From Escherichia coli (GTDB taxonomy: Bacteria > Pseudomonadota > Gammaproteobacteria > Enterobacterales > Enterobacteriaceae), in assembly GCF_016026235.1 (NCBI RefSeq), contig NZ_CP065613.1: 64,000 nt of DNA. One strand, written 5' to 3'. Below the pieces are notes generated by a model, which was not told the origin of the DNA, did not search any database, and saw nothing but the letters and a program-made list of their open reading frames with translations. The translations under genes were made by a program, and so were the position numbers. Each line of letters starts with the position of its first letter. The stretch's first letter is position 1. Below, in pieces: positions 41,818 to 43,100 of the stretch.

Positions 41818-42186
41818 GTGAAGAAAATCATTTGTCTGGTCATTACACTACTAATGACACTCCCCGCTTACGCGAAGTTAACTGCCCATGAAGAAGCCCG
41901 CATCAACGCCATGCTGGAGGGATTAGCACAGAAAAAGGATTTGATATTTGTGCGCAACGGTGATGAACATACCTGCGATGAAGCGGTTTCTCATCTGCGT
42001 CTGAAGCTCGGCAATACCCGTAACCGCATTAACACTGCCGAACAATTTATTGATAAGGTTGCTTCGTCATCATCGATTACCGGGAAGCCGTATATCGTGA
42101 AGATGCCCGGTAAGAGCGATGAGAATGCACAGCCTTTTTTACATGCGTTAATTGCGCAGACGGATAAAACGGTGCCTGCGCAATAA
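41818..42186 (+). CDS. yfeK: secreted protein of unknown function
   Basis: 122-aa ORF with signal peptide [19 protein letters not shown]. Confidence 0.7.
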
Positions 42187-42188
42187 TC

Positions 42189-43100
42189 TTAAATCCCCGC
42201 CCCCTGACTAAAATGCTCTTCCCCAAACACCCCGGTGGAAAGGTAGCGATCGCCACGATCGCAGATGATCGCTACCACCACCGCACCAGGGTTAGCTTTT
42301 GCCACCCGCAGTGCTCCGGCAACCGCGCCGCCGGAGCTGACGCCACAGAATATTCCTTCCCGCACCGCCAGTTCGCGCATGGTGTTTTCCGCATCGCGCT
42401 GATGAATATCCAGCACCTCATCCACCAGCGAAGCGTTGAAAATCCCCGGCAGATATTCCGTAGGCCAGCGGCGAATGCCGGGAATGCTGCTGCCCTCTTC
42501 CGGTTGCAGGCCGACAATGGTCACCGGTTTGGATTGTTCGCGCATAAAGCGTGACACGCCGGTGATAGTGCCGGTTGTTCCCATGCTGGAGACAAAATGG
42601 GTAATGCGCCCGCCAGTTTGCTGCCAGATTTCCGGCCCGGTAGTGGTGTAATGGGCGTAAGGGTTATCGGGATTATTGAACTGATCGAGCAGCTTTCCTT
42701 CACCACGATTCGCCATCTCCAGCGCCAGATCGCGCGCACCTTCCATGCCCTGCTCTTTGGTGACAAGAATCAGTTCCGCACCATAAGCACGCATCGCCGC
42801 ACGACGTTCCTGGCTCATGTTGTCGGGCATCAGCAATTTCATGCGATAGCCTTTAAGCGCGGCAATCATTGCCAGCGCAATGCCGGTGTTACCACTGGTG
42901 GCTTCGATTAACACATCACCCGGTTTAATTTCCCCGCGCTTTTCCGCCTCGACGATCATCGAAAGCGCCGCACGATCTTTTACCGAACCTGCCGGGTTAT
43001 TGCCTTCCAGTTTTAACCACACTTCACTGCCGTTATTCGGCCCCATTCGCTGCAACTTCACCAGAGGCGTATTGCCTATTGTTTGTTCTAATGTACTCAC
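42189..43100 (-). CDS. cysM: cysteine synthase B
   Basis: 303 aa from (V)STLEQTIGNTPLVKLQRMGP..., PLP enzyme paralogous to cysK. Confidence 0.9.
   Translation of the reverse strand: MSTLEQTIGNTPLVKLQRMGPNNGSEVWLKLEGNNPAGSVKDRAALSMIVEAEKRGEIKPGDVLIEATSGNTGIALAMIAALKGYRMKLLMPDNMSQERRAAMRAYGAELILVTKEQGMEGARDLALEMANRGEGKLLDQFNNPDNPYAHYTTTGPEIWQQTGGRITHFVSSMGTTGTITGVSRFMREQSKPVTIVGLQPEEGSSIPGIRRWPTEYLPGIFNASLVDEVLDIHQRDAENTMRELAVREGIFCGVSSGGAVAGALRVAKANPGAVVVAIICDRGDRYLSTGVFGEEHFSQGAGI

Follow-up and report, generated by a model that had tools for sequence, protein, structure and literature searches.

The yfeS-less yfeK/cysM junction as the probable majority allele of a known Escherichia coli locus

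Results

The yfeK/cysM junction and its genes

Within the 64-kb stretch of DNA analysed here (the window), yfeK and cysM are convergent genes whose stop codons almost touch. The features of the locus, in window coordinates, are:

41757–41784, + strand: putative sigma-E-type promoter of yfeK (−35 GAAACTT, 16-nt spacer, −10 TCAAA), recognised by eye and from its identity with K-12
41818–42186, + strand: yfeK, 122 aa, GTG start, TAA stop at 42184–42186 (from the open reading frame list, the sequence and Pfam)
42151–42184, both strands: palindromic stem-loop ATTGCGCAG…CTGCGCAAT at the 3′ end of yfeK, from folding of both strands
42187–42188, no strand: 2-bp spacer TC between the stops, the site of the yfeS + BIME cassette in K-12-type genomes
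42187–42264, + strand: C-rich, G-poor stretch, a candidate Rho loading region from its base composition
42189–43100, − strand: cysM (cysteine synthase B), final gene of the cysPUWAM operon, 303 aa, GTG start at 43100

The yfeK product has a signal-peptide-like N-terminus, matches Pfam DUF5329 (E 1e-31; 109.4 bits against a cut-off of 27) and is 100% identical to a RefSeq sequence labelled YfeK family protein. A profile search assigned the cysM product to the PALP family, and the identical sequence in RefSeq is cysteine synthase B (cysM); the cysM stop appears as TTA on the + strand (42189–42191). Both genes are annotated on identical sequence, with the same relative coordinates, in the RefSeq strain FDAARGOS_943. 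An earlier note on this DNA had placed the two stops 2 bp apart, and the open reading frame list and the sequence agree that exactly TC lies between them. The same note had given the K-12 order as yfeK-yfeS-cysM and had reported yfeS as missing here. The order was right, K-12 DH1 having pdxK, yfeK, yfeS, cysM and cysA, and the absence is confirmed by an alignment of the window with K-12, which is interrupted at 42183/42184, where about 960 bp of K-12 are passed over.

The −35/−10 stretch upstream of yfeK is identical in K-12, and yfeK or yfeKS has been treated as a unit of the sigma-E regulon (PMC3326320, PMC2685091). We found no match to the strict sigma-E consensus GGAACTT-N15-17-TCNAA in the window; the yfeK promoter therefore deviates from it at one position.

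The 2-bp spacing of yfeK and cysM is statistically unremarkable, since tight convergent pairs are common in the window: a greedy open reading frame call gave a gap of at most 5 bp for 3 of 11 convergent pairs. The other two are an AraC-family ORF facing a PTS enzyme I-type gene at a distance of 2 bp (5462 and 5465), and hemF/eutR, 5 bp apart (57313 and 57319). All four genes of these pairs are real genes by NCBIfam.

Distribution of the yfeS-less junction

We searched 5,426 complete E. coli genomes for the junction and for its K-12 counterpart. A 901-nt probe was matched in one piece, indicating an uninterrupted junction, in 4,039 genomes, and it split at the yfeK stop in the rest. A 121-nt junction probe found 4,038 matches over its full length, of which almost all had kept the same length, and the whole K-12-type yfeS segment was detected in 1,381 genomes, so that the junction class and the yfeS class together comprise all but about six of the 5,426. 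The junction sequence CCTGCGCAATAATCTTAAATCCCC is the same in O157:H7 strain 611, E2855 and 536. It differs by one substitution in 2020CK-00188, by one in Escherichia SCPM-O-B-8794 (a separate species representative that is labelled E. coli in the genome collection) and by two in Pseudocitrobacter faecalis; the spacer of strain FCI29 is 3 bp long, TCC.

The earlier note had offered two explanations, a precise deletion scar or the ancestral state, and had itself named the presence of the same 2-bp junction in most related genomes as the finding that would refute its claim, by making the arrangement ancestral. That is the finding we obtained (4,038–4,039 of 5,426). Of its two explanations, the ancestral one is favoured by a junction common to 74% of E. 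coli, another Escherichia species and P. faecalis. We consider it highly probable that the junction is the usual, majority form in E. coli and that the K-12 arrangement is a minority allele.

Structure and origin of the yfeS cassette

In K-12, BL21, AST85 and one Pseudocitrobacter metagenome-assembled genome (MAG), 953–983 bp take the place of the eight bases CAATAATC. The cassette starts with GAAGGAAATTAATCC, which lengthens YfeK to 124 aa (…PAEGN), followed by a ribosome-binding site; the remainder consists of yfeS (244 aa, with a WGR domain) and a 3′ region with a REP pair, and ends in ATTAATCC, abutting the cysM stop. REP sequence is absent altogether from the junction in the window. The terminal ATTAATCC is one copy of an 8-bp direct repeat found at both cassette ends, the left copy lying 7 nt inside the breakpoint, and empty sites have just one copy resembling it, AATAATC(C) or AATAATCC. 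The pattern is compatible with an insertion that duplicated its target or with a deletion mediated by the repeats; neither single event interconverts the alleles, given a further difference of 7 nt on the left. Excision between the repeats would yield …GCGGAAGGAAATTAATCCTTAAAT…, and the window shows …GCGCAATAATCTTAAAT…, which is distinguished from that product by 7 nt as well as by substitutions. No complete E. coli genome among the 5,426 had the precise-excision product: the best full-length matches to the excision probe were standard junctions, 95.0–95.6% identical and 6–7 nt shorter. Eight other exact 8-mers also recur in the same A/T-rich 1-kb stretch. We also considered the cassette as a transposon, a reading that is unsupported, as repeat analysis revealed no terminal inverted repeats, there is no transposase, and the 8-bp repeat is at chance level.

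The G+C content of yfeS is 36–44%, compared with 56–61% for the adjacent cysM. The closest relatives of YfeS form a group of 89–98% identity that includes one E. coli and one Shigella flexneri entry; relatives beyond this group are at most 65% identical, and those named come from Paenibacillus, Dysgonomonas, Lysinibacillus and Clostridium (Firmicutes and Bacteroidota). From its composition and relatives, yfeS looks like an optional, horizontally acquired accessory gene. If yfeS is foreign, the yfeS-less state must predate its arrival. Between K-12 and the Pseudocitrobacter MAG, yfeS DNA is 95–100% identical, as against 68–77% for the 5′ half of yfeK and 80–96% for cysM. That yfeS is more alike across genera than its flanks indicates that the cassette has crossed genus boundaries. 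Its presence at this fixed site is patchy: it occurs in one Pseudocitrobacter genome and not in P. faecalis, and in 1,381 of 5,426 E. coli genomes. PADLOC gave no defence-system match for YfeS, YfeK or the cargo proteins of other genera, and the idea of a defence islet was set aside.

Cassette alleles within E. coli differ by about 5%. Among the strains compared, the flanks are undifferentiated by yfeS state: cysM of the yfeS carriers BL21 and K-12 is 99.0% and 97.5% identical, respectively, to that of the window, and AST85 (with yfeS) and 2020CK-00188 (without) have flanks that are 99.6–99.7% identical to each other and otherwise very divergent. The near-identity of the AST85 and 2020CK-00188 flanks indicates that switches of state do occur, and the divergence of the cassettes, combined with undifferentiated flanks, points to an old presence/absence polymorphism with freely recombining flanks. 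On this evidence, the filled and the empty allele are probably both old, and recombination in the conserved flanks has probably moved them from lineage to lineage, as well as between Escherichia and Pseudocitrobacter. Arrival of a K-12-type cassette (~950–985 bp, yfeS with a REP pair/BIME) brings yfeS into the sigma-E-driven yfeK transcription unit.

The yfeK/cysM boundary in other genera

In the relatives that we scanned, yfeK and cysM are convergent with 1–100 bp between them, or overlap, or have unrelated cargo at this spot. The gap is free of cargo in Citrobacter amalonaticus (31 bp), Superficieibacter sp. (32 bp), Intestinirhabdus (99 bp), Entomohabitans (57 bp) and the Enterobacteriaceae genome UBA5654 (1 bp), and in Escherichia sp. 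E1V33 the two genes overlap by 12 nt. The cargo is a SnoaL/DUF4440 gene in Klebsiella and Superficieibacter electus, where it and the cysM stop share the four bases TTAA; two genes with no assigned family in E. albertii; and a 116-aa ORF in Salmonella, to which YfeS shows no similarity, the position being the same. On one Enterobacter contig yfeK is convergent with a DsbA-like gene, and pdxK and cysM lie further on. Of four contigs examined to cover more genera, one, from Citrobacter/Salmonella, bore a paralogue of YfeK in unrelated surroundings and is uninformative for the locus. The existence of relatives with no cargo and of others with varied cargo shows that the yfeK/cysM spot is variable.

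A stem-loop adjoins the junction

The earlier note had seen no terminator and no hairpin between the two genes. As regards a canonical terminator it was correct: a consensus scan of 41500–43400 for terminators and promoters gave no site resembling a terminator on either strand around the junction. The sole terminator hit (43065–43077, + strand) lies within the 5′ end of cysM, and hits were fewer than expected by chance. The statement on the hairpin holds in so far as none fits into 2 bp, and fails in that the palindromic stem at 42151–42184 adjoins the junction. In + strand RNA it has a 9-bp core stem, with two more pairs across an internal loop, and overlaps the yfeK stop codon; in cysM-sense RNA it is an 11-bp stem that begins 4 nt past the cysM stop. 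Segments of 62 nt fold with −14.0 kcal/mol (+ strand) and −16.3 kcal/mol (− strand), and segments of 76 nt have folding z-scores of −1.1 and −0.8, so the hairpin is not energetically unusual. No U-tract is found next to the stem on either strand, the following sequence being AAUCUUAAAUCCCC (+) and UAACGCAUGUAAAAAAGG (−). The junction therefore has one element of an intrinsic terminator, a G+C-rich stem-loop (inside yfeK), and not the other, the U run; it also has one feature of a bidirectional terminator, a palindromic stem-loop at the gene boundary. The published RNA maps, in which coinciding 3′ ends of both transcripts would mark such a terminator, are of K-12, where the yfeS cassette occupies this site. 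A canonical example close by is the crr/pdxK terminator, AAAAATGGCGCCCATCGGCGCCATTTTTTT, which in the window is split by IS4. An Rfam scan of 41000–44000 at a permissive threshold identified no known RNA at the junction; its only hits were a chance miRNA match and, between cysM and cysA, a REP-like naRNA4 match below threshold.

The stem is extended in all yfeS-less alleles that we examined and is only 5–7 bp long in yfeS-carrying alleles. With the variants found in 2020CK-00188 and SCPM-O-B-8794, pairing is kept only in the − strand RNA, through G-U pairs. These wobble-compatible substitutions were considered as covariation and rejected, as they amount to two events with a prior of 50% each and are not significant.

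Rho terminates untranslated and antisense transcripts, and past its own stop codon each of the two transcripts would be an untranslated antisense RNA. The stretch that follows the yfeK stop (42187–42264) contains 37% C and 19% G, a C/G ratio of 1.93; among 78-nt windows across the 64-kb window, the 95th and 99th percentiles of this ratio are 1.71 and 2.18. Read-through from cysM reaches a C/G ratio of 2.18 at 200–280 nt. Given this base composition and what is known of Rho, we infer that Rho would be the main and most likely terminator of read-through, possibly assisted by head-on collision of polymerases and by the hairpin at 42151–42184. The hairpin may also shield the 3′ end of the cysM mRNA, replacing the K-12-type REP pair. 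It is plausible from the gene arrangement that each transcript runs antisense into the partner gene, as the earlier note had proposed. With a hairpin abutting the junction and a C-rich tract after the yfeK stop, to say that there is nothing to stop transcription is too strong.

Discussion

The yfeK/cysM junction of the window is the majority allele of an already known locus, and its difference from K-12 is an accessory-gene polymorphism. We think the following combination unlikely: that the yfeK/cysM boundary has long served the Enterobacteriaceae as an insertion hotspot, where unrelated small genes (yfeS, the SnoaL/DUF4440 gene and those of Salmonella and E. albertii) arrived repeatedly, that in Escherichia and Pseudocitrobacter empty and filled alleles have persisted and crossed genera, and that the extended hairpin of the empty allele replaces the role of the REP pair for cysM. 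The part assigned to the hairpin in this account is that of a 3′-end stabiliser or of an element that positions collisions, as the REP pair would be in the filled allele.

We judge it distinctly unlikely that the present junction goes back to an ancient secondary loss, in which an ancestor of Escherichia had a 124-aa YfeK and cargo, and a single old deletion produced a 2-bp junction that later became the majority and spread by recombination. One argument for such a loss comes from the C-terminus of YfeK. Loci with cargo encode a YfeK of 124 aa in yfeS-carrying E. coli, Klebsiella and E. albertii, and of about 125 aa in S. electus, and the tails are similar (…TVPAEGN with yfeS, …TVVAESQ in Klebsiella, …TVPDEDK in S. 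electus; that of E. albertii is also alike). The 122-aa tail resembles the Klebsiella tail without two codons, and the yfeS-less sequence GCG-CAATAA-TC equals Klebsiella GCG-GAAAGT-CAATAG-TTC less six bases. From the likeness of the tails among cargo loci, the yfeS-less allele could stem from an old cargo-bearing state, and Salmonella, Klebsiella and E. albertii each have an insertion at this spot; AST85 and 2020CK-00188 show that the state can switch on one flank background. However, short A/T-rich tails can be aligned by chance, and the junction contains no remnant of the cassette or of REP. The cargo genes are mutually unrelated (WGR, SnoaL/DUF4440 and others with no assigned family), which fits repeated insertion better than a single ancestral cargo, and C. 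amalonaticus, Superficieibacter sp., UBA5654, Intestinirhabdus and Entomohabitans have short gaps with no cargo.

A selected regulatory device is very unlikely. The tight junction would then allow sigma-E-driven read-through from yfeK to lower cysM, and read-through from the cys operon to silence yfeK and feed pdxK. The arrangement of genes gives this some substance: with a sigma-E-type promoter upstream of yfeK, read-through antisense to cysM would depend on envelope stress, and since pdxK lies just beyond yfeK and is co-oriented with cysM, read-through from the cys operon would enter pdxK in the sense direction. In addition, no terminator lies between yfeK and cysM, and cysM-sense RNA retains the hairpin in all yfeS-less alleles examined. 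The means by which yfeK transcription is proposed to act on cysM are antisense transcription or polymerase collision. Against selection for such a device, O157:H7 strain 611 and strain 536 have a frameshift in yfeK, about 1 kb separates yfeK and cysM in a quarter of E. coli, and other genera have unrelated insertions here at no apparent cost; the two hairpin substitutions, both preserving pairing at a 50% chance each, are not significant.

Finally, a recent, lineage-specific and precise deletion of yfeS in the descent of this strain from a K-12-like ancestor, the scar of the earlier note, is scarcely credible: K-12 does have yfeS at exactly this position and the 8-bp repeat ATTAATCC around the cassette could mediate excision, but the same junction is shared by 74% of E. 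coli genomes, among them representative unrelated strains, and by other species, rather than being confined to one lineage nested among yfeS carriers, the predicted product …GCGGAAGGAAATTAATCCTTAAAT… is unlike the actual junction and occurs in 0 of 5,426 genomes, and the recurrence of eight further 8-mers in the same kilobase makes the repeat alone weak evidence for excision.

We conclude that K-12 is the exception at yfeK/cysM. Its gene order fails for about three quarters of E. coli, and the absence of yfeS should therefore not be called a deletion. The locus offers a natural pair of alleles for the study of convergent termination, one with a 2-bp junction and a hairpin and the other with about 1 kb and a REP pair, and it is a case of an accessory-gene polymorphism common to two genera; neither use alters current understanding. 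What is mildly new is the sharing of both alleles across genera and the allele-specific hairpin, which as functional features are weakly supported.

In K-12 (b2419–b2421) the flanking genes, their order and their orientation are as in the window, and the flanks are 97–98% identical. The two differ in that K-12 has a 967-bp segment (yfeS, 244 aa, with a WGR domain, plus a REP pair) where the window has the 8 bp CAATAATC, that YfeK is 124 aa in K-12 (…PAEGN) and 122 aa in the window (…PAQ), and that the 3′ neighbour of cysM is a set of REP elements in K-12 and yfeK itself in the window. REP elements lie between the genes of 207 of 704 convergent pairs, and REP/BIME sequences act as 3′-UTR terminators and stabilisers (bioRxiv 10.64898/2026.03.23.713779); the REP pair between yfeS and cysM in yfeS-carrying genomes has the position typical of such pairs. 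Within the window, the AraC-family/PTS enzyme I-type pair and hemF/eutR consist of different genes and, like yfeK/cysM, leave no space for an intergenic terminator. Bidirectional terminators between convergent E. coli genes were described by Ju et al. 2019, whose work is summarised in bioRxiv 10.1101/2022.10.23.513370. The latter study describes convergent pairs at which collision-driven bidirectional termination requires a stem-loop and is neither intrinsic nor Rho-dependent. The yfeK/cysM stem differs from the known bidirectional terminators in that it lies within the yfeK coding sequence and over its stop, without flanking A and U tracts; it shares with them a palindromic stem-loop at a convergent boundary that can form in both transcripts.

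Haplotypes and exchange at the yfeK-cysM locus

The E. coli strains 2020CK-00188 and AST85 have a common yfeK-cysM haplotype, with 99.6-99.7% mutual identity, that is unusually divergent from those of other E. coli (92-95% identity). Despite this common divergent haplotype, the two strains differ in carriage of yfeS, which is present in AST85 and absent from 2020CK-00188, and their sequences turn mosaic beyond ~1 kb on either side. Among the 5,427 E. coli records with a match at the yfeK-cysM locus, identity reaches at least 99% in only 5; hence, the lineage from which the window derives is rare among records labelled as E. 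coli.

Comparison of yfeK between Pseudocitrobacter and E. coli gave 88-95% identity for the 3' half of the gene and only 68-77% for the 5' half. This contrast between halves is present in both Pseudocitrobacter genomes, one with and one without yfeS. Since the 3' half is far closer to E. coli than is the 5' half, the sequences suggest an exchanged segment that begins within yfeK. The yfeK start codon (41818) is GTG in the window, as compared with ATG in K-12, and the annotations of O157:H7 strain 611 (1567-1934 of that locus) and strain 536 (1564-1933 of that locus) mark yfeK as frameshifted. These differences suggest that constraint on yfeK is weak.

Gene junctions, insertion sequences and RNA structures

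The window has the following further features:

5462-5465, AraC-family regulator and PTS enzyme I-type protein genes, convergent, 2 bp between them
11160-12427 and 19053-20310, IS4-like element, present twice (ISEc60 family according to the FDAARGOS_943 annotation)
39416-40841, IS4 copy of 1,426 bp that interrupts the crr/pdxK bidirectional terminator (AAAAATGGCGCCCATCGGCGCCATTTTTTT) in its stem-loop
39429-40775, - strand, IS4 transposase ORF
42242-42276, core of a stem (GGTAGCGATC…GATCGCTACC) within the cysM coding sequence, with outer pairs extending to 42233-42283
43123-43155, REP-like element between cysM and cysA, a partial match to naRNA4 (RF02564) under the gathering score
57313-57319, hemF and eutR, convergent, 5 bp between them

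Two further convergent gene pairs in the window equal yfeK/cysM in tightness. IS elements are numerous across the window, and the two IS4-like copies match at 99.7-99.9%. A 12-bp target duplication, CGCCCATCGGCG, accompanies the IS4 copy in the crr/pdxK terminator. The + strand fold of 42200-42345, which holds the strong cysM-internal stem, has a z-score of -3.6, and no U follows the stem. In BL21 and AST85, a perfect 10-bp hairpin (TTGTCGGCAG CAACAA CTGCCGACAA) is positioned directly 3' of the yfeS stop codon.

Comparison with K-12

K-12 differs at three of these structures. Its crr/pdxK terminator is uninterrupted, whereas that in the window is split by IS4; one arm of the cysM-internal stem is mismatched; and a 16-bp deletion has removed the hairpin 3' of yfeS that BL21 and AST85 retain.
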